In this document: positions 1 to 17,162 of the stretch, piece after piece
Layout: each line of letters starts with the position of its first letter
Numbering within the stretch: position 1 is the stretch's first letter
IMG/VR virus record: IMGVR_UViG_2695420624_000004
Length of the DNA stretch: 17,831 nucleotides
Reading direction: 5' to 3' (one strand)
Source: a virus
Lineage: Duplodnaviria > Heunggongvirae > Uroviricota > Caudoviricetes
Notes under the pieces: generated by a model
The model's input: the letters and a program-made list of their open reading frames with translations, nothing else
What the model was told of the DNA's origin: nothing
The model's database searches: none
Made by a program: the position numbers and the translations under genes

Positions 1-405
1 ATGGATCAGGTCGTTGTTTTTCAAAAGATGTTTGAGCAAGTGAGAAAAGAGCAAAACTTCTCCTGGTTTTATTCAGAATTAAAACATCACCGTATTGCAC
101 ATTACATTTATTATCTGGCTACGGATAACATCAGAATTATTACTCACGATGATACGGTTTTGTTATTAAGAGGAACCAGGAACCTGTTAAAAGTTAGTAC
201 GACCAAGAACCCTGCTAAAATAAAAGAGGCCGCATTGCTTCATATTTGCGGAAAATCTACATTTCGGGAATACTGTTCAACACTGGCAGGTGCGGGCGTT
301 TTCCGGTGGGTTACTGATGTTAATCATAACAAACGCAGTTACTACGCCATTGATAATACGCTTTTATATATTGAAGATGTAGAAAATAATAAACCATTAA
401 TCTAG
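1..405 (+). CDS. ycgX: YcgX-like small protein (134 aa), host gene flanking the prophage
   Basis: Complete ATG-to-stop ORF starting at base 1. Length and position (beyond iraM, distal to the icd fragment) match the icdC-iraM-ycgX arrangement I remember from E. coli K-12. Identity is from memory and synteny, not a search. Confidence 0.5.
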   Translation: MDQVVVFQKMFEQVRKEQNFSWFYSELKHHRIAHYIYYLATDNIRIITHDDTVLLLRGTRNLLKVSTTKNPAKIKEAALLHICGKSTFREYCSTLAGAGVFRWVTDVNHNKRSYYAIDNTLLYIEDVENNKPLI

Positions 406-611
406 CTAAAGTTGGATACTTAAGAAATGCTTCATAATTCAGTAAGGCATTAGCATAATGGAAATAAAAGTGCAGAGACTATCTCTATGGATGATTAATA
501 CTGTCTTTTTATTGTCACCCATAAATAATCACCAGACTAATACTATCAACTTGATATTTGAAATGTGATCACTTGACTTTTGATACGTTATTTTATAACG
601 GTTAACATATT

Positions 612-643
612 TATAAAAACAACGGCCGTGCCACACGTCCGTT
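612..643 (-). terminator. Terminator-like hairpin, diverged second copy of the icd terminator
   Basis: AACGGCCGTG-CCA-CACGTCCGTT stem-loop (one mismatch), followed on the minus strand by a T5 run. About 50 bp (611-660) aligns with the icd terminator region at 1476-1525, with compensatory stem changes. Confidence 0.45.
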
Positions 644-999
644 TCAATACTTAACGCACATGTATTTTGGTTTAGTCATCATCCGGTTATATGTATTTTA
701 GCCAGGAACAGGTTAAATCATTCCTATATAACTCAAAAATTGAAACCTTATTCTCATGTCATGCTTATATTCATTATTATCGTTATATAAAAAGGCAACC
801 ATAATGTTTAGCAAATTGGCACAAAGTAGCATAAAGGCTATGTTTTAATTACAGGATGTTCAGTCATTTGAATGTATAACATTATAGCTAAACAAATCTA
901 AAACGAAGTCAATAATTTATTGCTTTCACAAAATCTCATTTTGTTTAACATCCATTGAGATTCCTTGCTTTAAATTTTATTTTATATAAGCCATCATTT

Positions 1000-1040
1000 T
1001 AATTAATTTATTTTTTTGAGGGGGGGGGTAATATACTCAT
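1000..1040 (+). promoter_or_regulatory. Candidate iraM promoter (TAATAT -10-like element at 1029-1034)
   Basis: AT-rich region with a TAATAT hexamer about 70 bp upstream of the iraM start. No clear -35. Inferred from sequence only. Confidence 0.3.
1020..1028. repeat. G9 homopolymer preceded by T7, inside the putative iraM promoter
   Basis: Sequence reads TTTTTTT-GA-GGGGGGGGG-TAATAT at 1011-1034, about 78 bp upstream of the iraM ATG. The tract lies just upstream of a -10-like TAATAT. Confidence 0.9.
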
Positions 1041-1105
1041 ATGCAAAATCAAGAAATAAACATCCTAATGAACCATATTAAATACCGTGGGATAAGACAT
1101 AACAA

Positions 1106-1429
1106 ATGAAGTGGATAGTAATTGACACGGTAATTCAACCTACATGTGGTATATCTTTTTCAGCCATATGGGGTAATATGAAAATGATCATCTGGTATCA
1201 ATCTACTATATTTCTCCCTCCTGGCAGTATATTTACACCGGTTAAGTCTGGTATTATCCTTAAGGATAAAGAATATCCTATTACTATTTATCACATCGCA
1301 CCATTCAACAAGGATTTATGGAGTTTACTCAAAAGCAGTCAAGAGTGTCCTCCAGGAGAAAGCAAAATAACAAATAAATGTTTACATAATAGTTGCATTA
1401 TAAAAATATGCCCATATGGGCTCAAGTAA
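1106..1429 (+). CDS. iraM: IraM-like anti-adaptor protein (107 aa)
   Basis: 107-aa ORF ([13 protein letters not shown]...), AT-rich, divergent from and adjacent to the displaced icd fragment. Length and synteny match iraM (ycgW) as I remember it. Confidence 0.6.
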
Positions 1430-1475
1430 TGGGCTTCATATAAATATGCTCGATATGCTATTAATAATATCCACA

Positions 1476-1508
1476 TAAATAAAACAACGGGCGTGTTATA
1501 CGCCCGTT
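1476..1508 (-). terminator. icd Rho-independent terminator
   Basis: AACGGGCG-TGTTATA-CGCCCGTT hairpin, followed on the minus strand by GTTTTATTTAT, about 25 nt after the icd TAA stop. Confidence 0.7.
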
Positions 1509-1531
1509 TCAATATTTAACACATGGAGAGA

Positions 1532-1696
1532 TTACATGTTTTCGATGATCGCTTCACCAAACTCTGAACATTTCAGCAGCTTAGCGCCTTCCATCAGACG
1601 TTCGAAGTCATAAGTTACGGTCTTGGCATTGATTGCGCCTTCCATACCTTTAACAATCAGGTCAGCCGCTTCAGTCCAACCCATATGGCGCAGCAG
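1532..1696 (-). pseudogene. icd: Displaced 3' fragment of isocitrate dehydrogenase (icdC-type), last 54 codons plus stop
   Basis: Minus-strand translation reads [54 protein letters not shown], the Icd C-terminus. Homology stops abruptly at about 1696; upstream is unrelated AT-rich DNA. The 165-nt length matches the e14-type integration site in icd. Confidence 0.85.
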
Positions 1697-1885
1697 TATA
1701 TAAAAACCATGAATTCAAGTCATTGATATTTAACGATAAAAATTATTTTATTGTCTTTTTATTAGCCAAAATAAACTTTATTCAACCGTTTGATTTCATT
1801 GACGTTCGTTTTTATTTTGGGGAAAGGTTTTCTCTACCATTTATATCCAAATTACAAGTCTACATTTTATTAACATCTCAATACA

Positions 1886-1916
1886 TGTGAGGCCTTGCAG
1901 ACCTTTGTGAGACCTT
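1886..1916. repeat. Clustered direct repeats TGTGAG(G/A)CCTT / GACCTT in the att-proximal arm
   Basis: Reads TGTGAGGCCTT-GCAGACCTT-TGTGAGACCTT within 31 bp, about 200 bp inside the prophage from the att junction. Arrangement resembles recombinase arm-type sites. Confidence 0.4.
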
Positions 1917-2396
1917 ATGTGTCTCTGTTTTGTCCCAACTTATGTTAAGAGGCACATAATTAAAAATAAGATAACGATGCCGCCAAGCAGTGCAAAACCT
2001 TGTTTACTCCACGACTGTCTGCCCCATTATCTGCATACATAATTATCCTCCATAACTGAGATAAATGTCGGTTATGAGCGAACAACAGACGTTTAGTTTA
2101 TGATGGCTGTGTCTATACATTAAACATAACATCCATTACCGGCACCGCTTATTAATTGCTATCTGATATTGTCACTAAAAAAATAGGCATTCCCCGATAT
2201 AATAATCACAAAGAAGCTTTTGGTGCTGGCAATCGGTATACCTCATAGTGGACTGCGACTTTCCGGGCACGACAAGGATATATCAATGTATGAGCAGGAA
2301 AATTAGACCGTGGTGCGTCATATGATGACTAAGCACGGATAACAGCTACTTAATTGAAACTATTGATTATATTACAGCCAGTGCCTTATAGGATGG

Positions 2397-3518
2397 TTAG
2401 TCATCAACCGCGACTCCTGCACAATCATGGGCTATTGCCAGCAATTGTTTTTTAATTGCTTTAGCATCTACCGTCATATCTACTGTAGCAAAATGGATCT
2501 TATGTCCCTGAGTGACAACATACTCATTAAGCATATAGCCAACAGCTGGATGAAGTAGAAGACCAGCGGCATTGAGCGAAAGCGGATCCGTCTTGTTCTC
2601 CTGTGTTCTAAGGTAGGTATATAGCTGATAAATATAGCCATTACGTAGTGATTGCTCCCGATGCCAACCCTTTGTCAGAATCGAATTAAATTTGGTATCG
2701 ATAATAATACGCCGCTGGGCAGTCTTGTGTTCCAGAATAATGTCTGACTTCATTGTCGGGAAAATCTCTGCACTACCTGCACTTTGATCGCTCAACGCCC
2801 ATTTCAGCTCTTTCCCTGCAGAGACCTGCCAAGTTGTTTTGGCAAGGTGTACACGATATAAGCCAGCGATACCTTTTTCAAATAGTCTTCTCATCCAGTA
2901 AAGGTTATTTGAGGGCGCAGGTAAAAGATATTGGCCTTGATCTTCGGTCGGCATCAGCAGTTCAAAAGCTAATCGTGCGGCATCGACCATCGGTTTATCT
3001 GCGGCATCATGGCGTCCAAAACGCCACACTGAGGGTAATTCGCGGGGGGCAGGATATCCTCCATTTATCCCCTCACGGCGAAGTGATATTGCCATAAAAT
3101 GGCAATCTGCCGCCAAAGACGGTTTCACTATGATTGAGGCCAGACGTTCTAACGCACAGCGAACATAGCGATTTCGGGGGGTGTTGAGGGTTATGTCTTG
3201 AAAATGGCAGGCAACCTGTCCCCGTTCCAGCAGTTGATGACTGGCAGTATACAGTATGTCAATGCGCCCTCTCACCCGGTTCAGGGCCGCATGACAAGTT
3301 TGGTATCCCATATTTAAATTGCGACGTCGGCGCAGCGTAATCTCATGAAGGAGGATTGTCGCCACCAGGTCGGGGATTTCTGCTGGGTTATCTTCTACTG
3401 CGATCTGATTGCGCCCTAACTGGCGAAACAGATCTGAAGCGTACAGCATCAGCATCCAGATATTTCGCATGGGAATACGTGATGCTGTATGTTGCTCACT
3501 CCCGGTTATTGTCGTCAT
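2397..3518 (-). CDS. McrC-family nuclease subunit of a Type IV (modification-dependent) restriction system
   Basis: 373-aa ORF. N-terminal PMRNIWMLMLYA resembles the McrC N-terminus; the IIIDTKF...QSLRNGYIYQLYTYL block matches the McrC PD-(D/E)xK nuclease region. Start ATG overlaps the upstream stop as ATGA. Confidence 0.8.
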   Translation of the reverse strand: MTTITGSEQHTASRIPMRNIWMLMLYASDLFRQLGRNQIAVEDNPAEIPDLVATILLHEITLRRRRNLNMGYQTCHAALNRVRGRIDILYTASHQLLERGQVACHFQDITLNTPRNRYVRCALERLASIIVKPSLAADCHFMAISLRREGINGGYPAPRELPSVWRFGRHDAADKPMVDAARLAFELLMPTEDQGQYLLPAPSNNLYWMRRLFEKGIAGLYRVHLAKTTWQVSAGKELKWALSDQSAGSAEIFPTMKSDIILEHKTAQRRIIIDTKFNSILTKGWHREQSLRNGYIYQLYTYLRTQENKTDPLSLNAAGLLLHPAVGYMLNEYVVTQGHKIHFATVDMTVDAKAIKKQLLAIAHDCAGVAVDD

Positions 3519-5497
3519 TTTGCTAATAACACTTTTCTGGCTTCATCGACTTTATTTGGAGCATCGAACCAATATTCGGCGAGCAAAGGGCAGATCTCTG
3601 TATCAACGACTTGTTCATACCAAGCCTGGGCATCGTTGATTTTTTGGCCGATAGCTGGGGTGACATAGCTGTGACCGATACAAAACTGTGGTCCTAAGGT
3701 AACATCTTTTGCCAGCATATCGTTTAATACCGTCAGTCGAGATTTGATGAATGCTAACATGTCAAAATCAATTGCGTAATTATAATTTACCCAGTTTCTC
3801 CACGCGTCATTAAAAGCTGGCTTTAGATCGATAAACGCGAAACGACGGCGCAGCGCTAGGTCAAGTAGTGCGAGTGAGCGGTCTGCAATATTCATCGTAC
3901 CGATGATATATAGATTCTCAGGAATGTATATTTTTTCATCAGCATTTTTAGGATAGGAAAGAGATAATGCCTCAGTCGGCGTGCGTTTATCTGCTTCCAT
4001 CAACGTGAGTGTTTCACCGAAGATTTGCGCCGGATTGCCACGATTAATCTCTTCAATTATCACCACATATTTCGAGGTAGGATTATTGACTGCAGTTTTG
4101 ATTGCATTTACAAAAGGTCCATCAATTAGCGTCAATTGCCCTTCTTTACCTGGACGCCAGCCTCGAATAAAGTCTTCGTAAGAGAGGTTCGGGTGAAATT
4201 GCACCGCGCTAATACGCTCAGGTGCTTTTTCTCCCATCAAGCAGTACGCCAGACGTCGCGCTAACCAAGTTTTTCCAGTTCCGGGTGGTCCTTGTAATAT
4301 CAGGTTTTTCTTGTCGATCAGGCGCTGAAGTGTGAGTTGGATCTTAGCCTCTTCCAAGAAACAGCCATCCTGCACCAGATGACTGATGTCATAAGGAACG
4401 TGGGTGAGTTTTGGCAACAGCGCACTCTCTTCGACAGTTTCCTCAGTTATCGTCTGGGATTCGTTTTTCTCAAAATTCAGGTATTCATAATTTCCGGACT
4501 CGAGGGACTTTAACTCATCATCATTGCATAGTTTCTGTAGATAAAAGTAGATTGAGCTTGTAACAGTTTTGCTCTCAGGATGCTCTACCTTGAATACGTC
4601 CAAGTAGTTTTCTTCCAACTCCGAAGCAGTGAAATAAGGGCCATTTTTTTTCAGGCATAACGCCTTAATTTTATTCAGTAAAGAGGCTTTCCACGTTCTA
4701 TTTGCCACCTCATCTTTAGACTGGCTAAGATCTGTATTCCACGCTGATAAGGAAAGTTCTGGGAAAGAATGAACCGGATAGTTTGGTTGGGTAAAGACCT
4801 CGTTCAGCGCCCGCATAAGACTCAGGTAACTTTGTCCACTACAGCGACCTTTTGCCCCGTTTTTAATGATCTTAATGTTTAACACTGTCTGAATGTAATA
4901 CTGCGACTGGCTATCTAAAGTGGGGTAGAACCAAGGACGGGTCCAGTACAACCCCATGGTGAGATTCCAACCGACATTCATTACTGTAGAAGCGATGTCA
5001 TATGCGGCAGTGAAGTCTGCAGAGTTAGTATTCTGGTTATCCGCAAAGATCATTGCCTGTGAGAACATTTCCCACAAGCATTCAATGTCATTAGGGTCGC
5101 GTGACTTTTCATAACCAAAGAACCAAGATTTTTGGTTATTCAACAGAGGGATTCCGGCAAAGGAGTCAGGAATCGGTTCGTTCACGCCCAACAAATTCGC
5201 TAGCTTGGCAGCAATAATTTTGCGATTGCTGTCGGTCAAGTTACGATTGAACAAGCCCATAGTAGTAAACGGACAAATGTCTTTTAAGGGAAAGATCTCT
5301 CCCATAATAGATTTGTCCTGCAGATGGGACATTCCTTCCACACCCGAGGCAATTAGATGAATACCTTTGACTAATTCATCTCTACGATTTCGCCAAGTCA
5401 GTAACGCGTTGGCAAAAGCCTCATAAAAACTAGCCCAAGCAAACTTGCCATCATGTTCTGCTGTATCCACGGGAACTCCATTATACTTGTTGAGCAA
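3515..5497 (-). CDS. McrB-family AAA+ GTPase with an extended, uncharacterised N-terminal region of about 400 aa
   Basis: Walker A LILQGPPGTGKTW and a C-terminal IIGTMNIADRS...ALRRRFAF block typical of McrB. The annotated start is TTG; an in-frame GTG at 5470 with GGAG 5 nt upstream and a TATAAT just before it is a plausible alternative start. Confidence 0.85.
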   Translation of the reverse strand: MLNKYNGVPVDTAEHDGKFAWASFYEAFANALLTWRNRRDELVKGIHLIASGVEGMSHLQDKSIMGEIFPLKDICPFTTMGLFNRNLTDSNRKIIAAKLANLLGVNEPIPDSFAGIPLLNNQKSWFFGYEKSRDPNDIECLWEMFSQAMIFADNQNTNSADFTAAYDIASTVMNVGWNLTMGLYWTRPWFYPTLDSQSQYYIQTVLNIKIIKNGAKGRCSGQSYLSLMRALNEVFTQPNYPVHSFPELSLSAWNTDLSQSKDEVANRTWKASLLNKIKALCLKKNGPYFTASELEENYLDVFKVEHPESKTVTSSIYFYLQKLCNDDELKSLESGNYEYLNFEKNESQTITEETVEESALLPKLTHVPYDISHLVQDGCFLEEAKIQLTLQRLIDKKNLILQGPPGTGKTWLARRLAYCLMGEKAPERISAVQFHPNLSYEDFIRGWRPGKEGQLTLIDGPFVNAIKTAVNNPTSKYVVIIEEINRGNPAQIFGETLTLMEADKRTPTEALSLSYPKNADEKIYIPENLYIIGTMNIADRSLALLDLALRRRFAFIDLKPAFNDAWRNWVNYNYAIDFDMLAFIKSRLTVLNDMLAKDVTLGPQFCIGHSYVTPAIGQKINDAQAWYEQVVDTEICPLLAEYWFDAPNKVDEARKVLLAK

Positions 5498-5830
5498 TGA
5501 TAATTTATCTGTGTGAGTTTTAACATATTACTATCAGTTATAGAAAAATTTAACTATCCGATACAGAGAGCGGAATGCTGAATTTGACCTGACTTGCTTC
5601 CAACCAATTAAAATCAACTTATTTATCAATTGGTTATTTTGGCACATGGCGGTCATCAAGGCAATATCGCGTTGTCATAAGGTGTCGAGGCTCGGAGGTT
5701 CAAATCCTCTCATACAAAAAATAAATAAAATTAATGACGGTTGGAAATTATTCAATACACTCTCGAAAGTACATCAGCCAACCGCAGCACGTTATTGCAT
5801 ATAACGTTTCTGCGGCATATCACAAAACTA

Positions 5831-6415
5831 TTATTCCATAACAGGGATTGCAGGCCACTCAATATCAGGTGCAGTTGATGTATCAACACGATTCAGCAAC
5901 ACCCGATACTTCTTCCAGGCTTCAAGCAACGAGGTTTCTTCCTCCGTTGCGATTTCCAGATCTGCAGCATCCTGAAGCGGGGCAATATGCTCACTGGCTA
6001 CCTGCATCAGGCTGTTTTTTGTTTCTTCCGCCTCCCGGATCCGGAACAGTTTTTCTGCTTCCGTATCCTTCACCCAGGCTGTGCCGTTCCACTTCTGAAA
6101 CTCCCCTTCCGGGGATAACCAGGTGATATTTTCCGGTAGAGGTCCGAGTTCAGAAATAAATAACGAGTCGCCGGAAGCCACGTCATAGACGGTTTTTCCC
6201 CGATGATCTTCAACGAGATGCCACGATGCCTCATCACTGTTGAAAACAGCCACGAAGCCTACCGGAATATCTGGCGGTGCAATATAGGTACTGTTTGCTG
6301 GCAGACCTGTATGAGGCGGAATATATGCGTCACCTTCACCAATAAATTCATTAGTTCCGGCCAGCAGATTATAAATTTTTATGGTCCGTGGTTGTTCACT
6401 CATTCTGAATGCCAT
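5831..6415 (-). CDS. tfa: Tail fibre assembly protein (lambda Tfa-like)
   Basis: 194-aa ORF ([24 protein letters not shown]...WPAIPVME), near-identical to lambda Tfa as I remember it. Start overlaps the stf stop by 1 nt (TAATG). Confidence 0.9.
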
Positions 6416-9264
6416 TATGCAAGCCTCACAATGTAGTTAAATGCGATGTTTTTGACGGTGTTTTCCGCGTTACCAGCAGCGTTAACGGTGATGGTGTGTC
6501 CATGTGAGCCAATCGCAACGGAGTGCGTATGAGCACCAATACCGACAGTATGTGCATGTGCGCCTGCGCTTGCAGCAGTGCCGGACAGCGAGTGGGTATG
6601 AGCACCATCTGATGATGTCTTCCCTGCATTACGAGTCTGGCCACTACCGCTTGTTGTGCTCATAATCCCCGCGCTTGGATTTGAAATCGCGGTATAACCA
6701 TTAGGGAAAATGCTCGTGTTCGTGCCACCAAATGCACCGGAACTCTTGTGTTGGTGCGCGCCGGCACTATTTGCGGTCCCGCTAATACTATGGGTATGCG
6801 CCCCGGTGTTATTCGTGGATTTGGTTCCGTAATCAAACGACGATGTGGTTTTCGTCCCCAAATCCGTACTGGATGCGCTGGCGCTGTGGGTGTGCGATTT
6901 AATGCCGTCCTGTTCCTGAGACAATACGGCCCGACCACTGGCAGGTTTGCCCTTAATCGTCCAGCCACGCATATCAGGGATCACGCCTGACGGATAAGCG
7001 GCTGCAAGTTTCGGGTAAGCAGATTTGTCAAAAGTCTGCCCCTGCATCAGGGCATAACCAGACGGAACGGTATCTGATGGCCACGGGATTGGTGCGCCGA
7101 CTGGGTAGCTTTCTGGTGGAAGATTTTTCGAGGTATAAACTTCTGCCCAGCCTTCCTCAAAACCATAACCGTCTCTTGAAGAACGGTAGAACAGACCACC
7201 ATTTCTGTAATGCGCCTTCATCTGCAGGGTCCGGCAACTTCCGACTCCGGTATAGAAGTTAACCAGAATATAGCTGTCGCCAGAGCGGGTGACATTGTAA
7301 GCGCCTGATTCGGCATTCCAGGGAACGCCACCATCCGCATCGGCATATGTATCCGTTGCCCTTCTGGCAAAAGCAGCCACATGCGCGGCGGTTAAAGTAA
7401 TATCTTTGGAACCATCAAATGGAACACCGGATATTTTTCTTGCAGTCTGGAGTTTTGTAGCAGTTGCAGCATTACCAGTGGTGTTCTGATTACCCGTAGT
7501 GTTTACACCTGGAAGGTTAATATTTGCAGAACCGTCGAAAACAACTCCACCGATAGATCTTGCCGTCTGCAATTTCGTGGCTGTACTTGCATTACCATTC
7601 AATGAACCAGTTAATCCACCTGTAACAGACAACGGACCTGAAACTGTTCCTCCGGTTGTTGGCAGTGCTCCAATATCTGATGGTGTAGGTTTCTGATGTG
7701 AGCTATACATCGTATAAACAACACCATAGGTAACGCTGGAAGGCTTACTCGCTGAATATGTTGGCGAGGTATAAACAGAAACTGACGCATTTGCAGTACA
7801 ATCCCAATGGATATTTACACTCGTCGCATAATTGCCAATCTCAACGTAAATATCATATGTATCGCCGGATGTGTTGATCCAGGCGAAATTCGTTAATCCG
7901 ACGGCTGTACGCTTCCACAAAGCCCCGGTAATTCCTTTGGGGTTTCCATTGCCTGCTCGTAGAACCAGTTCTGAAATGCCTGCCTGATGTGGGGAACCGA
8001 CGTTGTAACCAGCGCCACCAATCAATGCGATGTAAACGATGGAACTCGCTTGTGGCATGGTAACCGTAGCCAGTTTGAACCACCCAGCCCCGCCAGAGAA
8101 AGACATCGTTACTGAATTTAAAGTACCAATATCTTTCGGCGTTAATGTTATATCCGCAGTCAGTGCTTTTCCGTTAACTTTTCGGTTAGATGGCACCCTG
8201 CTATTCGCATTGTCATTGGCTGCTTTAACTGCTTTTGGCGTTGCGGCCAGCGATTCACTGGTGCTATCAACAGCACTGCTAAGTTTCACAACACCTTTAG
8301 TTGTAAGGCTTGCGTCTTCCATCGCAACTGCACCGGCAATCTCTTCAGCACGATCAGCAGCAGCTTCCGCACGGGTCGCAGCGGATTCAGCAGTAGTTTT
8401 GCTCTGAGATGCCGCCGTCGCACTGCCAGCTGCCTCTGTCGCCTTCGTGGATGCTGTCGTGGCGCTGCCTTTCGCTGCTGATGCCTGTCTGCTCGCCTCA
8501 TCTTTTGAAGCAGACGCAGATGATGCCGATGACGCCGCCGAACTGGCGGACGATGCAGCTGCCATTTTTGAGGATTCTGCACTGGTTTCCGAGGCTTTCG
8601 CGTTCGTTTCGGATGTCTTCGCTGCGGATGCAGACCTCGCTGCTGCGCTGGCCTGTTCAGCGGCTTCGCCAGCCTTCGTTGTGGCTGTTGAAGCAGACGA
8701 TGCGGCGCTTTCTGCCGATTTTCCGGCGGCGGTGGCACTGGCTGAGGCCTGCCCGGCACTTGTTGACGCGGCACTGGCAGACGACGCAGCCGCTGTTTTT
8801 GAGCCTGCCGCAGCCGAGGCGCTCTGTCCCGCTGCCGTTTCAGAAGACCTGGCGTTTGTCTCAGACGTCTTTGCCGCCTTCGCGGAATTGCCTGCCGCCG
8901 TTGCCGAGGAAGCGGCACTACTGGCGCTTGATGATGCGTTCGTTTCTGATGATTTCGCTGCCTCTTTTGAGGCCGCCGCATCCCGGGCTGAGGTGGCTGC
9001 TTCTGACGCCTTCGTGGTCGCGGCGGATGCAGAAGTGGCTGCTGATTGTTGTGACGCTGCCGCATTCGTTTCTGACGTTTTCGCCGCACCGGCACTGGTA
9101 GCTGCCGCGCTTTTTGAGGACTCTGCAGCAGCACTTTTTGCTGCTTCACGGGCCTTTGTCGATGCCGTTCCTGCGCTGGAAGACGCTGACTGAGCCGACG
9201 ACGCGGCCTGTCCGGCTGACGTGCTGGCGGCACGTGCTGAGCCTGCAGCATCGGTTATTACCAC
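6415..9264 (-). CDS. stf: Side tail fibre protein (lambda Stf-like), body and receptor-binding tip; N-terminal part is in another frame
   Basis: Long Ala/Ser-rich KTSETNA-type fibre repeats, a conserved GAPIPWPSD...[24 protein letters not shown] region and a His-rich HxH C-terminal tip ending [11 protein letters not shown]. Confidence 0.85.
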
Positions 9265-9577
9265 TTCCCGGATCGCTATACGCTATTCCGTTAAAGATAA
9301 TGGGCGGAATAATGATTTGACGGTCAAAGTTATGATCATCGCTGATGGTGACTGTAACCGTCCCGTTTGGTGTTTCCGTATTACCCCACGTACCAGCCTG
9401 TTTCGGGAATGATTTGGATACAGCTTTAACGAAGTCACCTCTGACCGGACTCCCCTGCCCGTCAACCAGGCTTATCAGCGTGGTGCCGGAAGATGGCAGC
9501 GTGATTTCACGGTCGAGCGTCAGCGTCCGGGTCTGGCTGTTTACCGCCAGCACGCGCCCGCCGGTGCGGATACCCAA
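9146..9577 (-). pseudogene. Upstream segment of the tail-fibre reading frame, out of frame with the stf body (frameshift or junction)
   Basis: This ORF overlaps the stf body ORF at 9146-9264 in a different frame. Its first ~100 codons look like real protein, then it degenerates into an out-of-frame read of the Ala/Ser repeats. Assignment as Stf N-terminus is tentative. Confidence 0.4.
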
Positions 9578-9795
9578 GCTGGAGTGGCGAACGTTTTACC
9601 CTTGCTGATGAGGTATTCACTGATTTCGCTGTACCACATGTGGCTGAGTGCATTCTGGGAAAGACTGCGTCTCTCGCGCCACGGTTTAAGCACCATGCGA
9701 AAGCATTTGCCGTCCTCCAGATAAGGCTGGATCTGCCGACCGATAGCGGTGAAGTTACCGCGATGCAATTTGATACCATCTTGTGGGAGGTTCAC
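9541..9795 (-). pseudogene. NinB/YbcN-family protein, N-terminal fragment truncated by a deletion joint
   Basis: 84-aa ORF with GTG start preceded by GGAGG. The block KPWRERRSLSQNALSHMW resembles the NinB RSLDQNRKLW region. The ORF ends prematurely in non-homologous sequence near 9541-9580. Confidence 0.45.
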
Positions 9796-9989
9796 GCTTC
9801 ACCTCCGCAGAGATCAAACGCTGGATGCAAAATATCGCAGGTGCATTTCTGCATCTGTGAATGGAGAAGAGAGGTTGGATTGTATGTGCGCATAAACGTC
9901 CCCGTTTAGCGCAGAAGTCACCGGAGTTGTTCAGGCCCCAATGGCATGATTATGGCTGGTTGATTATTGGAAATCAAATGTGCTGAAAA

Positions 9990-10499
9990 TTAGTCTGCCA
10001 AGTCTTCCTCAGTCGCAACTGGGTAATTCCAAATATCAAAAAAAGCTATAGCCTCCTGCCATTTGCTCCATAAGTTATCAAGTACTTGTGTAGGTTCCGT
10101 ACTTTTAAAAACAGAATCAGCCGCATCACCGTTATGAACTTCCTCGTACAGTTCCATTATTAGCAGATTAACAAAGTACTGTTTCAACATTAATGCCTGA
10201 TTACCTTCTTTCTGCTGGCTATCCTGCTTGATGATCTCCATCGCCCGTACTAGGCACCTGATGATATCCGCTGCATCATTAACGCTCCATTCAGATCCGC
10301 GCTTATCTTTAGCTGATGAATTGGCTCTCTCAGCGCAAGCCTTTAAAGACTCATAAAGGTAAACTCTATTTTGTAGCTGCAGCGCTTTTTTTGACGTGTA
10401 CCAACTTGCAAGCGCCGACCCCGCTGCGGCTAATGTGCCAAACGCAGAAATACCTGCTGCTATTGCACTTAAGTCGGCACTGTCAAAGTTCCACATCAT
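9990..10499 (-). CDS. Hypothetical 169-aa protein with one N-terminal hydrophobic helix (membrane-anchored); stand-alone moron
   Basis: ATGATG start preceded by AAGGTG at 5-nt spacing. Upstream AT-rich region has -35/-10-like elements. Residues 10-33 (LSAIAAGISAFGTLAAAGSALASW) are hydrophobic; the rest is charged and helical-looking. No family recognised. Confidence 0.6.
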   Translation of the reverse strand: MMWNFDSADLSAIAAGISAFGTLAAAGSALASWYTSKKALQLQNRVYLYESLKACAERANSSAKDKRGSEWSVNDAADIIRCLVRAMEIIKQDSQQKEGNQALMLKQYFVNLLIMELYEEVHNGDAADSVFKSTEPTQVLDNLWSKWQEAIAFFDIWNYPVATEEDLAD

Positions 10500-10675
10500 C
10501 GTTACACCTTATATAAATACCCCTCAGTAATATCCAATAAGGTATGTGCACAATCAATATAATTTTATCCGTATCGGCACATAGCGATTTGAACGCTACT
10601 GGTAATGGTATATTTTAGATTATATCGTCCAGTTTACAGCACCCGTATTTTATGAAATGGACTCGCATATTACCC

Positions 10676-10714
10676 AAAAAATGCCAGCACTTCCGTCATC
10701 GTAGAATGCTGGCA
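10676..10714 (-). terminator. Rho-independent terminator between orf99 and orf169
   Basis: Perfect 8-bp inverted repeat TGCCAGCA/TGCTGGCA with a 17-nt loop, followed on the minus strand by a T6 run. Confidence 0.5.
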
Positions 10715-10757
10715 GTATTTCTAACTAGTGACTTTATTGGAACAGATTCTGACGGAA

Positions 10758-11057
10758 TTATGGTAACACTCGACTCCACTTATCATCCAGCCACGGCTGG
10801 AATTTTACATGTGCCGTTTCTCTGGCGAGGATTGCTCGCGCTCTGTTGAGTATCTGGGGATATTCTTGCTCGATAGAAGTAAAGCGGCCGGCTTCGCGGT
10901 GCTCCGCAACCTGAAGTAGTGGAGTAACGTTCTGGCAGGCAGTTAACATCACATCACCTGCTCGCCATAACCAAGCACGTGCACAAAGTTTGTTATCAGT
11001 GAATTGTTTTGTGATTGGGTATTGTTGAACTGCTAGAACGAGAACGCCAGCATCCAT
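10758..11057 (-). CDS. Hypothetical 99-aa protein (nin-region cargo)
   Basis: ATG-initiated ORF with AGGGA upstream, co-directional with ybcK and the orf169 moron. No family recognised. Confidence 0.45.
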   Translation of the reverse strand: MDAGVLVLAVQQYPITKQFTDNKLCARAWLWRAGDVMLTACQNVTPLLQVAEHREAGRFTSIEQEYPQILNRARAILARETAHVKFQPWLDDKWSRVLP

Positions 11058-11168
11058 TGGCAGTCCCTATAGTAAAACCATAGCTCAGGACGCTTCGTTC
11101 AGGATAGATAATTTTATTGTACTTACCTAACTTTCTTACTATAGCACGGTTGAAAAAGTGATTATTAC

Positions 11169-12695
11169 TCAAAAATAAACCTCACCATCAACCATATATT
11201 TGAGAGTACTTATCGCCTGCTGGGCGGATATTGTTTTCATTAAAGGATAGTGTTTAAAAACAATGCCATTCATAAAATAGATATCACAGGTTTTATTATC
11301 TGTATTGATTATGATTTTTTCGAATGTTTTATAGGCAAGTGTACGACATAGCTCTCGCCCATTTTTACTGGTTAAGTCAATAGCATGAAAATCACCAAGT
11401 GAACTCACCGCTTTACTCTTCAAAGTTTTTAATGATACAGAAGCCCTTCGTAATTCCTTATCTAATACTCTGATTTTTTCTGCTATAGCGGTAACTTCAG
11501 GCGCAACAGATAATGCAGCAATTAAATTATTAATTTTCATCTGGAGCTCAATAATTTTCAACTCTAAAGTTTCATTAGCATCTTTCTTGTTTTCAACTGG
11601 TTGGATTTTACTACAATTAAAAAGCAACTCATTAATGATATTATAATCAACCAAATCTCTCTTTATTGATGGCCTGTCACATCGATGCAGTCTTCTCATC
11701 GGACAAACATAATAGCCATGCAAACTTCCAGATACCGCATGAACAATCATGGTATTACCACAAGCCTCGCACTTCATAACTGTTCGAAGTAGATTTATCA
11801 ACATAGGATTTTTGCTACTATTGCTAATACCAAAAGGTGCCAACCGAATTTCCTGCACAGCGTAAAACAAATCATCTGATATGACTCTGGGATAATAGCC
11901 AGCGATTTCACTTATTCCTTTACCTCTTGCACGATATGAAGGTACGCATATACCTATCAGAGCTTTATTCGCTAATAATTTTTCAATTACAGAAGGTCCC
12001 CATGCACTTTCTTTTCCTGAGAAATTCTTTACAGCATGATCATTTAAATACTTGGCTATTGCATTCAATGAGCGCCTTTCCATCCTGAGTTTAAAAATTA
12101 GCTCAATAGTTTTCACCCTGTCGGGGTCTGGAACAAAAGCCGTTCTTTTGTCATCCAATGAGAGCCATCTCGGACAAGACGCCGTCATAATCGTGCCTGA
12201 CTCCAGTGCATCCTGCCGTTTTTTCTTCCATGATAATTTAACCCGACTTGACTTTATCTCGCTTTCTTCATTTGCCCTTTGTGCTATAAGTATGGCTTTT
12301 ATTAATGAATATGGCTCATTCAATGAGTCAATATTATAGACTGTATTATCGCAAAGAGTTATAACATCAATACCGTGATTCAAAATCAATTTCAGACGCT
12401 CAATCGCCTCACCGACTTTTTCTCTTGAAAGTCTGTCCAGACTTTCAACTAACAATGTAGTCCCTGGCAATATATAACCATGTTCTATAGCATCTAAAAA
12501 TTCCGAAAAAGCTCCTGATTGTGCATGCTTTCCATTGAATGCGCTTAACCCCAAATCTTCATACGTTACGGTATCAAGGTAATAATCACTATTTACCTTT
12601 AGCCATTCAGTAATAAGCCTTCTCTGGCGGTTTAATGAATCACCAGACATCTGACTTGGTGATGAAAATCGCATATATGCTATGGCTTTTTTCAT
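11169..12695 (-). CDS. ybcK: Large serine recombinase (YbcK-like)
   Basis: 508 aa. N-terminal resolvase-type catalytic domain (AIAYMRFSSPSQ with the presumed serine nucleophile), recombinase domain and a Cys-rich zinc-ribbon region (CEACG...CPMRRLHRC). Length and position next to emrE match DLP12 ybcK. Confidence 0.8.
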   Translation of the reverse strand: MKKAIAYMRFSSPSQMSGDSLNRQRRLITEWLKVNSDYYLDTVTYEDLGLSAFNGKHAQSGAFSEFLDAIEHGYILPGTTLLVESLDRLSREKVGEAIERLKLILNHGIDVITLCDNTVYNIDSLNEPYSLIKAILIAQRANEESEIKSSRVKLSWKKKRQDALESGTIMTASCPRWLSLDDKRTAFVPDPDRVKTIELIFKLRMERRSLNAIAKYLNDHAVKNFSGKESAWGPSVIEKLLANKALIGICVPSYRARGKGISEIAGYYPRVISDDLFYAVQEIRLAPFGISNSSKNPMLINLLRTVMKCEACGNTMIVHAVSGSLHGYYVCPMRRLHRCDRPSIKRDLVDYNIINELLFNCSKIQPVENKKDANETLELKIIELQMKINNLIAALSVAPEVTAIAEKIRVLDKELRRASVSLKTLKSKAVSSLGDFHAIDLTSKNGRELCRTLAYKTFEKIIINTDNKTCDIYFMNGIVFKHYPLMKTISAQQAISTLKYMVDGEVYF

Positions 12696-12880
12696 GGTGA
12701 CACCTGCTAAAGTATGCTTTTATAAACCTTAGTGGTGAGATATGATTTTTGTTTAATTTTTATTTAAAAAGACAATTAAGGTCACATTATCTTGAATATA
12801 CAACAATAATCGTATTGCAATTTTCTTACACCATAATCTTGAAAGCACAAAAGAATGAATAAAAACTAAAGACATTAACA

Positions 12881-12919
12881 AAAAGCATAAAACGAGGCCC
12901 ATATAAATATACGAGCCTC
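12881..12919 (-). terminator. Possible emrE terminator (weak hairpin plus T-rich tract)
   Basis: GAGGC/GCCTC 5-bp stem with a long AT-rich loop, followed on the minus strand by GTTTTATGCTTTTTG, about 30 nt after the emrE stop. Confidence 0.3.
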
Positions 12920-12950
12920 CATATTTTAGTCGTTTAAAAACAAATTATTT

Positions 12951-13283
12951 TTAATGTGGTGTGCTTCGTGACAATAAATTAATAACCAACACACCGGCAC
13001 AAATCAACATCATGCCTATAATGGCTGGCAGGTCCAACCGTTGGCCGAAAAATCCCCATGATAGTAAGCTAATCAGGACAATACCGACTCCTGACCAGAT
13101 AGCATAAGCAATCCCTGTAGGAATATAAGCCAGCGTCTGAGCTAATAACCAGAATGATGCACAATAACAAATAATTGTACCAACAGATGGCCATAACCGT
13201 GTAAAACCTTCTGAAAACTTCATTAAGGTTGTACCAATGACCTCTGCAAGTATTGCACCACCAAGATAAATATAAGGATTCAT
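12951..13283 (-). CDS. emrE: SMR-family multidrug efflux protein EmrE (110 aa)
   Basis: MNPYIYLGGAILAEVIGTTLMKFSEGF...LLSRSTPH is essentially the EmrE sequence. The ORF track's 128-aa version starts 18 codons upstream; the true start is the ATG at 13283. Confidence 0.9.
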   Translation of the reverse strand: MNPYIYLGGAILAEVIGTTLMKFSEGFTRLWPSVGTIICYCASFWLLAQTLAYIPTGIAYAIWSGVGIVLISLLSWGFFGQRLDLPAIIGMMLICAGVLVINLLSRSTPH

Positions 13284-13350
13284 AGCATATTCTTTCCTGT
13301 TCAAACTGGAGAGAATTGTACTACAGTTTGAACTCAACTCACCTGTTTCA

Positions 13351-13653
13351 TCATTGTGTACCCATTGATGTTCTTTTATATACCCTCAATACCCGTTTCA
13401 TCGCGGCACTCTGGCGACACTCCTTAAAAATCAAATTCGTGCTCACCTTTCCTTCCCATTCTTCTCTGGTAGCGAACCGATAATACACCGTTCGCCAGAC
13501 CTTACCATCAACGACTAGGATTCCTGCCCGCGCCATTTTAGCCGCAGCCTGATTTATGCTGGTTACCGTTGCGCCTGTTACCGCGGCAACGTCCTGCGCA
13601 CAGAATTTCTTATGAGTCCCCAGGTAATGAATAATTGACTCTTTGCCCGTCAT
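13351..13653 (-). CDS. ren: Ren-like protein
   Basis: MTGKESIIHYLGTH...AAKMARAGILVVDGKVWRTVYYRFATREE is near-identical to lambda Ren. Start overlaps the P stop (ATGA). Confidence 0.85.
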   Translation of the reverse strand: MTGKESIIHYLGTHKKFCAQDVAAVTGATVTSINQAAAKMARAGILVVDGKVWRTVYYRFATREEWEGKVSTNLIFKECRQSAAMKRVLRVYKRTSMGTQ

Positions 13654-14351
13654 ACCCTTGCTCCTTTCAGCCCAAACTTAGCTTTGATTTCTGCGATCTT
13701 CGCCAGAGCCTGTGCACGATTTAGAGGTCTACCGCCCATGACAGGAAGTTGTTTTACTGGTTCAGGTATAGCCTCACCACGGTTAATTCGTGCGGTCATA
13801 CAGGACAGTTCATCGGCAGCCTTGCGCCGTAATTCCGCGTCAGTCAACGCATTGGCCCGCATGTTCTGATACAGGTTGGTAACCAGCCAGTAGTGCGCGT
13901 TTGATTTCCACGGATAAGACTCTGCATCCGGATACAGCCCGCGCTTCCGGCAATACTCGTAAACCATATCAACCAGCTCGCTGGCGTTTGGCAGCCCGGC
14001 GGTAACGGATGCTTCTTCCCGGCACCAGGCGACAAACTGCCCGGGTGATGGCAGGAATGGTCGATTCTGCCGACGGGCTACGCGCATTCCAGCGTTAACC
14101 TGTTCCATTGTGGTGATCCCGTTTTCCCGAAAAGCCAGCACCCACTGGCGGCGGATTTCGTTCAGTTCATTCTGGTCACGGTTAGCCAGGCTCGCCGGGA
14201 AAGTTGCCAGTAACTGGCTGAACACACCGTTGATGATCTGCGCTACCTGCTGTACCTGTGGCTTTTCGTCGTACTGTTCCGGCATGTTGTTGGCGATCCG
14301 ACGCATCTGCTCACGGTCAAAGTTAACCATCTGTGCGGCGATGTTTTTCAT
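13650..14351 (-). CDS. P: Replication protein P (lambda P-like, full length, 233 aa)
   Basis: MKNIAAQMVNFDREQMRRIANNMPEQYDEKPQVQQ... near-identical to lambda P over the full length. Confidence 0.9.
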   Translation of the reverse strand: MKNIAAQMVNFDREQMRRIANNMPEQYDEKPQVQQVAQIINGVFSQLLATFPASLANRDQNELNEIRRQWVLAFRENGITTMEQVNAGMRVARRQNRPFLPSPGQFVAWCREEASVTAGLPNASELVDMVYEYCRKRGLYPDAESYPWKSNAHYWLVTNLYQNMRANALTDAELRRKAADELSCMTARINRGEAIPEPVKQLPVMGGRPLNRAQALAKIAEIKAKFGLKGARV

Positions 14352-14584
14352 AGATCCACCCCGTAAATCCAGTCAGTGTTTGTCAGGTCGAGTTTTGGTT
14401 TGCCGACTGTCACGCCAGCCTGTTGCTTGTTCCGGTTGATTTCGAGCTGGGTCCACTTGTCGCGGAGTTTGGCCGGACTCAGCACGTTACCGGACCAGAA
14501 GTTGTCCTGGCAGGCCCAGCGGAACAGTACACACATGTCGCGGTGGTTACGTCCATCACGTTCACGCATCAGACGGATATCGTT
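14348..14584 (-). pseudogene. O: Replication protein O, C-terminal ~78 codons only
   Basis: ...[59 protein letters not shown]...[13 protein letters not shown] matches the lambda O C-terminus. The first 16 codons of the ORF-track call are antisense to exo and not O. Confidence 0.8.
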
Positions 14585-15238
14585 ACCGGGATCGACGTGA
14601 GAGCTGTCGAACAGGGGGATGATGCGTGGCACAAATTACGGCTCGGCGTCATCACCGCTTCAGAAGTTCACAACGTGATAGCAAAGCCCCGCTCAGGAAA
14701 GAAGTGGCCTGACATGAAAATGTCCTACTTCCACACCCTGCTTGCCGAGGTTTGCACCGGTGTGGCTCCGGAAGTTAACGCTAAAGCACTGGCCTGGGGA
14801 AAACAGTACGAGAACGACGCCAGAACCCTGTTTGAGTTCACTTCCGGCGTAAATGTTATTGAATCCCCGATCATCTATCGCGACGAAAGTATGCGCACCG
14901 CCTGCTCTCCCGATGGTTTATGCAGTGACGGCAATGGCCTTGAACTGAAATGCCCGTTTACCTCCCGGGATTTCATGAAGTTCCGGCTCGGTGGTTTCGA
15001 GGCCATAAAGTCGGCTTACATGGCCCAGGTGCAGTACAGCATGTGGGTGACGCGAAAAGATGCCTGGTACTTTGCCAACTATGACCCGCGTATGAAGCGT
15101 GAAGGCCTGCATTATGTCGTGGTTGAGCGGGATGAAAAGTACATGGCGAATTTTGACGAGATGGTGCCGGAGTTCATCGAAAAAATGGACGAGGCACTGG
15201 CTGAAATTGGTTTTGTATTTGGGGAGCAATGGCGATGA
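14585..15238 (+). pseudogene. exo: Lambda exonuclease (Exo/Red-alpha) lacking its first ~9 codons; joined head-to-head to O'
   Basis: From [41 protein letters not shown] to the C-terminal FVFGEQWR this is near-identical to lambda Exo. The N-terminal 54 codons of the ORF-track call are antisense to O. No ATG start at the joint. Confidence 0.8.
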
Positions 15239-15393
15239 CGCATCCTCACGATAATATCCGGGTAGGCGCGATCACTTTCGTCTACTCCATTACAAAGCGA
15301 GGCTGGGTATTTCCCGGCCTTTCTGTTATCAGAAATCCACTGAAAGCACAGCGGCTGGCTGAGAAGATAAATAACAAACAGGAGGATATATGA
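15235..15393 (+). CDS. Small 52-aa ORF, lambda orf60a-like, coupled to exo
   Basis: [55 protein letters not shown] overlaps the exo stop (ATGA) and its stop overlaps the next ATG (ATATGA). Not in the ORF track because it is under 60 aa. Resemblance to lambda orf60a is from memory. Confidence 0.5.
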
Positions 15394-16454
15394 GTCAGGT
15401 TGGTAATCATTCATTCGAATTTCCGGCATCGCAAGGTGTACAGGGTGGTACTGTTACACTCTTCCTTACCATACCAGGAAGATCGCTGGCTCGTTTCCTC
15501 GCTTCAGATAATTACGGCCATACACTGGAACGCTCTCAGCGAGAAATTAATCCAAATCGAGTACGAAAATTTTTAAATTATCTCACTAACGCAGACTCAA
15601 GAAATGAGCCTTTTATCATTCCCCCTCTCGTAGGTAACTGTGATTCGAATATAGAATTTGTACCGTTTGGCAACACAAATGTTGGTATAGCCAGAATTCC
15701 CCTCGACGCCGAAATAAAACTTTTTGATGGTCAACATCGTGCAGCTGGCATTGAGATATTTTGCCGAAGTTCCCCATCAACGCTCATGGTTCCCATGATG
15801 CTTACAATGAATCTGCCGCTAAAAACCCGGCAGCAGTTCTTTTCGGACATAAATAACAACGTTTCTAAGCCATCAGCGACCATCAATATGGCGTATAACG
15901 GCCGGGATGATATTGCTCAGGGAATGATATCCTTCCTGACCCAACATACTGTATTTGCCGATATAACCGATTTTGAACACAACGTAGTGCCATTAAAAAG
16001 TAATATGTGGGTGAGTTTCAAGGCACTCACTGATGCAACGTCAAAGTTCGCTAGGAACGGCAATCAACAACTTGAAATGGGATATATAGAATCTGTCTGG
16101 GAGGCATGGATTACACTAACTCAGATTGACTCAATCCGACATGGTGTACACCACGCTACGTACAAGCGCGATTATATTCAGTTCCATGGAGTAATGATTA
16201 ACGCTTTCGGTTTTGCGGTTCAACAGATGATGGTTAATCATTCCATCGCAGAAATAACTTCTATGATCGAAAAACTATGTGCAACTACCAGCTCTGCAGA
16301 AAGAGAGGATTTTTTTCTGATGGATAACTGGGCGGGGATCTGCACGAAAGCCAGCCAGGAAAAACTATCTGTTATTGCCAATGTGGCAGCGCAGAAAGCA
16401 GCAGCAAACAGACTGATACAAGCTTTTACCAAAGGAAGTCTGGAAACAACTTAA
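15390..16454 (+). CDS. DGQHR-domain (DndB-like, ParB/Srx-type) protein, 354 aa
   Basis: Literal motif FDGQHRAAGIE at about residues 113-123, in the position expected for DndB/DGQHR proteins. Translationally coupled to the upstream small ORF and followed by a terminator. Confidence 0.7.
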   Translation: MSQVGNHSFEFPASQGVQGGTVTLFLTIPGRSLARFLASDNYGHTLERSQREINPNRVRKFLNYLTNADSRNEPFIIPPLVGNCDSNIEFVPFGNTNVGIARIPLDAEIKLFDGQHRAAGIEIFCRSSPSTLMVPMMLTMNLPLKTRQQFFSDINNNVSKPSATINMAYNGRDDIAQGMISFLTQHTVFADITDFEHNVVPLKSNMWVSFKALTDATSKFARNGNQQLEMGYIESVWEAWITLTQIDSIRHGVHHATYKRDYIQFHGVMINAFGFAVQQMMVNHSIAEITSMIEKLCATTSSAEREDFFLMDNWAGICTKASQEKLSVIANVAAQKAAANRLIQAFTKGSLETT

Positions 16455-16521
16455 TGAATCAACATTGTCTCATATCAGCATGCTGTACGGCGTCTTTAAG
16501 GAACGGTGAGCATGAAAAACA

Positions 16522-16542
16522 AAATCATCATGGAGCTACAGG
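16522..16542 (+). terminator. Rho-independent terminator downstream of the DGQHR gene
   Basis: GGAGC-TACAG-GCTCC hairpin immediately followed by TTTTTTATT. Confidence 0.5.
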
Positions 16543-16607
16543 CTCCTTTTTTATTATTCGCATTCACCCTCAAGCGTATTAACCAACAATTCAGGGATTA
16601 ATGAAAG

Positions 16608-16826
16608 ATGGCAGACATCATTGATTCAGCATCAGAAATTGAAGAATTACAGCGCAACACAGCAATAAAAATGCGCCGCCTGAACCACCAGGCTATATCT
16701 GCCACTCATTGTTGTGAGTGTGGCGATCCGATAGATGAACGAAGACGCCTGGCCGTTCAGGGTTGTCGGACTTGTGCAAGTTGCCAGGAGGAGATCGAAC
16801 TTAAGAACAAACAATGGGGACTGTGA
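16608..16826 (+). CDS. TraR/DksA-family C4 zinc-finger protein (lambda Orf73-like)
   Basis: 72 aa with a CxxC...CxxC arrangement (HCCECGDP...GCRTCASC) typical of TraR/DksA C4 fingers, in the exo-xis accessory region where lambda encodes its TraR-like protein. Confidence 0.7.
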   Translation: MADIIDSASEIEELQRNTAIKMRRLNHQAISATHCCECGDPIDERRRLAVQGCRTCASCQEEIELKNKQWGL

Positions 16827-16873
16827 TGGCTTCAAAGCAGCAAATTTCAACATCGTCCAACTGAGGTGTAAAA

Positions 16874-17113
16874 ATGTTCAGAATCATTTTTCCTAACACC
16901 TGGTACGTCGACCACCACGGCACTCCCTGCAAAATCCTGCGTTCTACCCACAACAAAGTTCACTACATCCGAAAAGGCAGAACATGTATCGCCAGCATGT
17001 TCCGCTTTAATCATGACTTTGAACCTGTGAATAAAGCTGATGCAGATCGGATAGCAGAAGAGATCGAAACGGCAGAACACATTAAGAAGTTACGTGCCAT
17101 ACGCAGGAAATAG
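16874..17113 (+). CDS. Hypothetical 79-aa protein (exo-xis accessory region)
   Basis: ATG preceded by GAGGTG at good spacing. Basic C-terminus. Co-directional with the TraR-like gene. No family recognised. Confidence 0.5.
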   Translation: MFRIIFPNTWYVDHHGTPCKILRSTHNKVHYIRKGRTCIASMFRFNHDFEPVNKADADRIAEEIETAEHIKKLRAIRRK

Positions 17114-17162
17114 AAAAATTGATAAATTCAATACTGCATTACTCAGCATTAAATTTATCTCT

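Follow-up and report, generated by a model that had tools for sequence, protein, structure and literature searches.

Published descriptions count icd among the most occupied prophage hotspots, with duplication of the 3' end of the gene. Phage 21 and the K-12 element e14 have been known since the 1990s to share the attachment site (attB) in this gene, and the title of Wang et al. (1997) indicates both this sharing and separate specificities of the two integration systems. The phage 21 system at icd is already known and very common, and it is a textbook case of a phage that enters a protein-coding gene and brings along a spare 3' end and terminator, with the result that the gene stays intact.

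We analysed a window of 17,831 nucleotides (the whole stretch of DNA presented here), in which a 3' fragment of icd adjoins prophage DNA. By sequence comparison, this junction is the long-known and common right-hand end of a phage 21-type defective prophage in icd. We consider it very probable that positions 1479-1950 are the attR-type junction of a defective mosaic prophage that arose by recombination through a phage 21-type tyrosine integrase, with the arm sites and the adjoining sequence module read as described below. The attP of such a phage contains a duplicate of the final ~165 nt of icd together with the icd terminator. Integration would let the phage copy complete icd on the int side of the prophage, with the host's own 3' end stranded here as a pseudogene beside iraM.

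The displaced icd fragment and the occupant of the site

The host flank lies in the reverse of its K-12 orientation and includes the E. coli chromosomal genes ycgX (1-405) and iraM (1106-1429), the latter adjoining the junction. Next to it, on the minus strand, are the icd 3' untranslated region and the native icd terminator (1479-1531), where a terminator scan detected a terminator-like site (AACGGGCGTATAACACGCCCGTT then GTTTTATTTA) and where a hairpin spans 1486-1508. This segment is part of a block of 218 bp (1479-1696) that is shared by the host and the attP of phage 21 and is duplicated by the latter; the phage therefore brings the icd terminator as well as the coding end. A search of 1400-2500 against Rfam returned only weak, chance-level matches, located at 1418-1560.

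The displaced fragment itself is an icdC-type pseudogene with a Glu/Glu allele (1532-1696, minus strand), and conceptual translation of the minus strand at 1532-1699 gives an open reading of the C-terminal end of Icd. The preliminary description gave its extent as the last 54 codons plus the stop codon, which is right to within one base: the icd homology starts at 1695 and runs to the stop codon at 1532-1534, corresponding to 53 full codons and two nucleotides. The length also agrees, within one base, with the 165-nt icdC pseudogene of K-12, and the fragment matches K-12 icdC at 19 of the 19 positions at which host-type and phage 21-type sequences differ. Lying beside iraM, it passes straight into prophage DNA, and in the strains ML35 and NCTC9100 it is annotated as a partial isocitrate dehydrogenase pseudogene. 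Two Glu residues had been noted in place of the Asp residues of K-12 Icd. The comparison confirms them at both positions, and K-12 icdC likewise has Glu at both. The Glu/Asp difference is thus the known host-versus-prophage allele, not a peculiarity of the strain: K-12 Icd has Asp where the fragment has Glu because the 3' end of the working K-12 icd is derived from e14. According to a review that cites Hill et al. (1989), icd is returned with Asp changed to Glu when e14 excises. Integration of this type accounts for the differences between strains in the last 54 icd codons.

The occupant of the site has the int-xis-attP module of phage 21, in agreement with the earlier view that a different prophage uses the e14 attachment site in icd. 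The arm at 1690-1950 (261 nt) is 90% identical to phage 21 (M61865.1, covering int-xis-attP, and OL657228.1, the genome) and 93% identical to the lambda-like phages 4A7, 1W, and 3W. Positions 1479-1950 align gap-free with phage 21 (2158-2629 of locus L002), an alignment that takes in the icd terminator, the 3' end of the icd coding sequence, the junction, and the arm; the phage 21 homology ends at 1950. Most of the window (1-17165) matches the strain NCTC9100 at 99.9%, where the element is a ~17.7-kb remnant that ends in xis, a 380-aa integrase, and an intact icd. This integrase is identical to phage 21 Int at 379 of 380 residues (99.7%) and 60% identical to the e14 integrase IntE. An IS3-family insertion takes up the final 666 nt of the window, which ends inside it at 17831, before xis and int; the strain Z1323HEC0011 has the identical IS3 junction and continues from it into the same xis, int, and icd. 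The cognate integrase is thus known only from the near-identical relatives NCTC9100 and Z1323HEC0011, the window stopping short of that region, and in these nearest genomes the intact icd is present at the other end of the element, together with xis and the phage 21-type Int.

The cargo does not consist of e14 genes, as the preliminary description had recognized. It comprises an McrBC-like pair, tail-fibre genes, a DLP12-like block (ybcK, emrE, ren, and P), exo-like and DndB-like genes, and the IS3 insertion. Both genes of the McrBC-like pair are encoded on the minus strand; the McrC-like gene (2397-3518) matches Pfam PF10117 (5e-21; RefSeq mcrC), and the gene for the McrB-like AAA_5 ATPase of 660 aa (3515-5497) matches PF07728 (8e-27; RefSeq AAA family ATPase). 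Among 5426 complete E. coli genomes, 1465 carry the junction of truncated icd and P arm, scored as coverage of at least 80% of window positions 1600-1880. Unoccupied icd genes in which the counterpart of 1600-1695 is identical to the window also exist.

The phage arm and the 59-nt module

The strand-exchange (core) region is contained in a 27-bp identity block (1669-1695), within which 1685 is the only position that distinguishes the displaced fragment from the hybrid icd of NCTC9100. In the attL/attR pair of K-12 e14, mismatches at the equivalents of 1673 and 1685 leave 11 identical bp that correspond to 1674-1684 (GTCCAACCCAT, which is ATGGGTTGGAC in the icd sense). This 11-bp block is a candidate for the core position, and it agrees with the 11-bp core of the e14 literature. 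The A at 1685 in the displaced fragment, against G in the hybrid icd, was considered as a means of pinning the exchange to 1674-1684 and was dropped, the base being polymorphic (11 A and 3 G among the attP-type sequences of a wider sample). Because of this polymorphism, because the icd-like segment is a mosaic of "host" and "phage" alleles, and because identical unoccupied icd genes exist, the exchange point is stated only as 1669-1695.

Beyond the core lies the phage 21-type P arm, the int-distal arm of attP (1697-1877, plus strand, 76% A+T). It would be organized as in lambda, with an A+T-rich sequence, two predicted IHF sites, and one putative arm-type Int site (1815-1826). Two exact matches to the IHF consensus on the minus strand (1716-1728 and 1783-1795) are the positions at which we infer IHF binding. 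The dodecamer TTTTGGGGAAAG on the plus strand (1815-1826) occurs once in the 17.8-kb window, allowing up to one mismatch, and corresponds to the putative arm-type dodecamer of phage 21 (YYTTCCCCAAAA / TTTTGGGGAARR). In NCTC9100, three tandem copies of TTTTGGGGAAAG are found in the same orientation between int and icd (31171-31207 of locus L003), and OL657228.1 annotates the tandem triplet as attP subsites P1P2P3 with the consensus YYTTCCCCAAAA. The single copy in the window matches the three tandem copies beside int at the other end.

The e14 dodecamer, TTTTGATAAC, has the same 3+1 layout, with its single copy ~125 bp from the core in the arm beside icdC. No TTTTGATAAC layout was found in the window arm, and the e14 and window arms diverge right after the icd homology. 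Since the 3+1 layout is present in both phage 21-type elements and e14, the dodecamers are the best candidates for arm-type Int sites, and TTTTGGGGAAAG is likely to be such a site. The difference between the dodecamers of phage 21 and e14 fits their separate known specificities. The outermost phage 21 dodecamers span 397 bp, a stretch that does not include the GRCCTT repeats. It fits a minimal phage 21 attP of 366-418 bp, which would likewise exclude them.

These repeats had been described as three GACCTT-type motifs in the first ~220 bp of the prophage, and all three were located there: TGTGAGGCCTT (1886-1896, GRCCTT from 1891), GCAGACCTT (1897-1905, GRCCTT from 1900), and TGTGAGACCTT (1906-1916, GRCCTT from 1911). 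Mononucleotide shuffling of the window (1000 replicates) gave three GRCCTT motifs within 30 nt only twice, and the cluster thus exceeds chance. The repeats end ~220 bp into non-icd DNA, ~60 bp outside the dodecamer and ~200 bp from the core. They were not found in the int-proximal arm, between int and icd, of either NCTC9100 or phage 21 (loci L003 and L002), and neither the repeats nor the module that encloses them was found in e14.

The three repeats (1886-1916) are enclosed in a conserved 59-nt module (TCAAWACATGT...GTTTTGTCYC, 1878-1936, plus strand). Its borders are sharp, and the flanks on both sides are unalignable among phage 21, PhiR57_1, Kati, SfI, SfII, and phi458. The fetched loci contain 143 copies in 23 variants, and the module is present in 3943 of 5426 E. 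coli genomes (73%). A recognizable integrase gene lies within 3 kb of 30 of the 143 copies and is upstream and in the same sense in all 30, at a distance of either 121-159 nt or 462 nt. In phage 21, SfI, SfII, and Kati, the module is located past attP, away from int, and in the int sense; the gene order in SfI and SfII is xis, int, attP core, module, gtrA, and the SfII record (KC736978.1) annotates the module as a "putative rho-independent terminator". In K-12, it lies at the right end of DLP12, between the argU-like attR and ompT, ~300 nt upstream of ompT. The module is common to phages whose Int and Xis are unrelated to those of phage 21 (SfI/SfII, Kati, and DLP12); the Int proteins of phage 21 and SfII are 27% identical over 158 aa, and their Xis proteins are dissimilar. 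The curated Rfam families gave no match at the module in the search of 1400-2500, and a full-text literature search for its motifs returned nothing relevant. The small RNAs svsR and C0293 of icd-integrated prophages are unrelated to it, svsR being located at the 3' end of cI and C0293 at the attL side of e14.

On the plus strand, the module folds into an imperfect hairpin of 17-18 bp (1883-1922, -18.3 kcal/mol, z = -2.05), and the GRCCTT repeats are half-stems of this long hairpin. An alternative hairpin with a 5-bp stem (1909-1925) lies directly before TGTTTTGT and passes a simple terminator scan. The T tract, which is short and interrupted, begins 4 nt past the long stem, the more stable of the two. 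Across the 23 variants, standard pairs occupy 93% of the pair cells on the plus strand versus 77% on the minus strand, and most substitutions are compatible with wobble pairing (for example, G-C, A·C, and A-U occur at one pair). Covariation was not significant for either hairpin model and did not exceed that of shuffled alignments, the variation being too low. For the DLP12 copy of K-12, the text supplements of one Term-seq data set (Adams et al., 2021) list no RNA 3' end near 585,93x-585,99x; expression of the flanking gene envY may simply be lacking.

Alternative readings of the arm and the module

Assignment of the junction to the e14 family, and not to the phage 21 family, would accord with the shared attB and with a displaced fragment identical to K-12 icdC, and the related element of ML35 bears e14-like genes further in (ymfL, ymfQ, and baseplate genes). 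However, the e14 arm beside icdC is unrelated from the first base past the icd homology and has TTTTGATAAC, not TTTTGGGGAA, and the Int of the relatives is far closer to that of phage 21 (99.7%) than to IntE (60%). Judged by the arm sequence, the e14-family assignment is already refuted, and we give it next to no probability. The preliminary description suggested that the GRCCTT repeats are arm-type recombinase or directionality-factor sites, bound by the Int or Xis of the phage itself. They are indeed non-random direct repeats spaced 9 and 11 bp apart, about one helical turn, they lie on the P-arm side as do the Xis sites of lambda, and they are conserved in phage 21. The suggestion did not hold, however: the int-proximal arm is without the repeats and bears three TTTTGGGGAA dodecamers, a motif found once in the window arm, and the repeats are located beyond the outermost dodecamer (by ~60 bp), ~200 bp from the core, and are absent from e14 despite the same attB. 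The same sequence is also found 121-159 nt from SfII-type integrases with 27% identity to phage 21 Int and a dissimilar Xis. A site for phage 21's own Int or Xis at the repeats is very unlikely, because the repeats belong to a module that is shared across unrelated integrases. The lesson for annotation is that the arm-type site of phage 21-type elements is the putative TTTTGGGGAA dodecamer, not the GRCCTT half-stems. Another protein-binding role, that of a CII-type activator site (TTGC-N6-TTGT, 1895-1908) for a promoter directed towards accessory genes, would be in line with the label "CII binding site matches ttgynnnnnnttgy" that OL657228.1 places on the same sequence, with the occurrence of the pattern in the window copy and in all main module variants, and with the position of the Sf-phage module ahead of gtrA in the same sense. 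Yet the window contains five such patterns against 4.4 expected, no plus-strand -10/-35 promoter-like site was detected at the module, and the plus strand downstream of it encodes nothing for more than 1 kb in either the window or phage 21. We regard a CII site here as highly improbable, and the annotation was set aside, the pattern being at chance frequency.

The main rival to a terminator or hairpin cassette is a functionless gene remnant. The 59-nt block would then be the 3' end, without function in cis, of the gene CPT_21_32, which encodes a small "putative membrane protein" of 51 aa in phage 21; it would be conserved where that gene is intact and survive elsewhere as a recent remnant. CPT_21_32 overlaps the module with its 3' end, its stop codon falling at the left border of the block, and the frame ...DKTETHK(A/V)SQ..ARPHMY* can be read without interruption in the window as well as in phage 21 and Kati. 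The right flank encodes the rest of the ORF in about half of the 143 copies, and of the seven nucleotides at which the window and phage 21 differ, three are synonymous changes in that frame. On the other hand, the ORF is interrupted by a stop in phi458, lacks a start in SfI and SfII, and is reduced to 25 codons from a GTG in the window (1878-1955, minus strand), where the N-terminal part is diverged and out of frame relative to phage 21, while the block is still 85-100% identical between unalignable flanks. The positional homologue in lambda is similar at the DNA level but in another reading frame, the CPT_21_32 protein belongs to no PHROG family, and the substitutions favour the retention of plus-strand pairing. 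The ORF was tested as the explanation of the module and is not conserved; the remnant in the window is probably non-functional, and we consider it unlikely that the block as a whole is a mere gene end.

The role that we consider most likely for the module is that of a transcription stop, or of an RNA hairpin, where the int-att module borders on the accessory genes; the terminator-like scan hit and the SfII annotation favour a terminator. The fuller proposal, which we make tentatively, is that it is a formally undescribed functional element acting at the RNA level (a boundary terminator or a sib-like processing hairpin) that would move as a cassette from one lambdoid phage to another, whatever integrase they encode, and always sit just outside attP and in the int sense. 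The repeats themselves are very probably no part of the recombination machinery but half-stems in a self-contained module that ends in a T tract. In the phage, the module would stop transcripts running in the int sense, and in the prophage it would stop transcripts entering from the host flank. Counting against this role are the modest fold z-score, the non-significant covariation, the short and interrupted T tract, the tI/sib that lambda keeps upstream of its own diverged copy, the lack of a listed 3' end at the K-12 DLP12 copy, and, in phage 21, the inverted icd terminator that already sits between int and the module. The position of the module fits that of a sib/tI retroregulator, as it is located past attP in the int sense and is parted from int by integration. 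Strict homology to sib/tI of lambda was rejected, because lambda keeps its own tI upstream of a diverged module copy. Should transcripts prove to be terminated or processed at the module, it would count as a small and widespread regulatory part at prophage boundaries, with one K-12 copy upstream of ompT.

Comparison with described systems

Phage 21 (M61865.1 and OL657228.1; studied in the Campbell laboratory in the 1990s) is the closest described system. It uses the same attB and duplicates the same 218 bp of icd end and terminator, its P arm is 90% identical, with the dodecamer in the same place and the same 59-nt module beyond, and its Int is shared by the relatives of the window element at 379 of 380 residues. 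In contrast to phage 21, the window prophage is a ~19-kb defective mosaic, and the small ORF beside the module is broken.

The e14 element of K-12 has the same insertion point and the same displaced icdC fragment. Both e14 and the window element have three tandem dodecamers by the icd end and, in the opposite arm, a single one at ~125-135 bp from the core. Just within attR, each has a type IV restriction gene (mcrA in e14, McrBC-like in the window element). They differ in that the arms are unrelated, the e14 dodecamer is TTTTGATAAC, IntE is only 60% identical, and e14 lacks the 59-nt module.

Lambda shows the same order of int, P' arm, core, and P arm (with IHF and arm-type sites), followed by a hairpin element in the int sense, and it has diverged positional homologues of both the module and the neighbouring small ORF. 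Its tI/sib forms a hairpin of its own, lying after the P arm and before the module homologue, whereas the homologue itself is without a T tract and folds better on the opposite strand.

The attP-gtrA element of SfII (KC736978.1) and the right end of K-12 DLP12 contain the same module, with 85% identity to the window copy, and its position and orientation relative to int and attP are as in the window. The integrase family and attB (tRNA genes) differ from those of the window element, and int is at 121-159 nt rather than 462 nt. The downstream genes are co-directional with the module in SfII and DLP12 (gtrABX and ompT, respectively), whereas in the window they converge on it.

State of the prophage element

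With neither an immunity region nor head genes, the prophage in the window is a defective mosaic remnant. Its DLP12-like block (11169-14423) comprises a ybcK-type large serine recombinase, emrE, ren and P, and here an exo-like gene adjoins a truncated replication gene in the opposite sense. The early region also encodes a DndB/DGQHR-domain protein (15390-16454, plus strand; Pfam 3.8e-46, PADLOC DndB 4e-37), flanked by exo-like/DUF1317 genes on one side and a TraR-like gene on the other. It is solitary, with no other dnd genes found nearby.

Near the right end, an IS3-family insertion (17165-17831) lies between a DUF4222 gene and xis, and includes an rve-domain transposase gene (17208-17828, minus strand). 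The insertion may cut xis and int off from early transcription. The window shares it with strain Z1323HEC0011 and with CFT073-type loci.

The 59-nt module and its small ORF

The conserved 59-nt hairpin module also occurs at other loci. The K-12 copy (NC_000913.3 585,932-585,990, minus strand, corresponding to 533-591 of locus L149; 4001-4060 of locus L012) is at the right end of DLP12, immediately past the argU-like attR and about 300 nt upstream of ompT, and it shares the orientation of envY and ompT. In E. coli O157:H7 H2495, the copy (locus L013, 4001-4063) is located about 270 nt upstream of a tyrosine recombinase gene, in divergent orientation; this gene heads an island with ABC-three-component-system genes. 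The H2495 arrangement is probably the junction of two adjacent elements.

In phage 21, a small ORF of 51 amino acids, CPT_21_32 (2689-2844 of the phage 21 locus L005), overlaps the module, as this ORF also does in roughly half of the module copies. It encodes a hydrophobic stretch followed by a basic stretch, and a search for a corresponding PHROG family returned none. The window counterpart (1878-2085, minus strand) is split into pieces of 25 and 41 codons, and lambda has an N-terminal part (VKEKK...) homologous to the phage 21 ORF.

Genes on either side of attR

About 80 nt 5' of the iraM start is a poly-G tract (1020-1028) whose length differs among strains, with nine G in the window, eight in K-12 and ML35, and seven in NCTC9100.

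On the prophage side, a McrC-like gene (PF10117) and a McrB-like ATPase gene (AAA_5) are encoded on the minus strand at 2397-5497. The McrB-like protein has 660 amino acids, with a long N-terminal region, and its gene is interrupted by an IS3 element in ML35. The pair is located immediately inside attR, in the very slot held in e14 by the type IV restriction gene mcrA.
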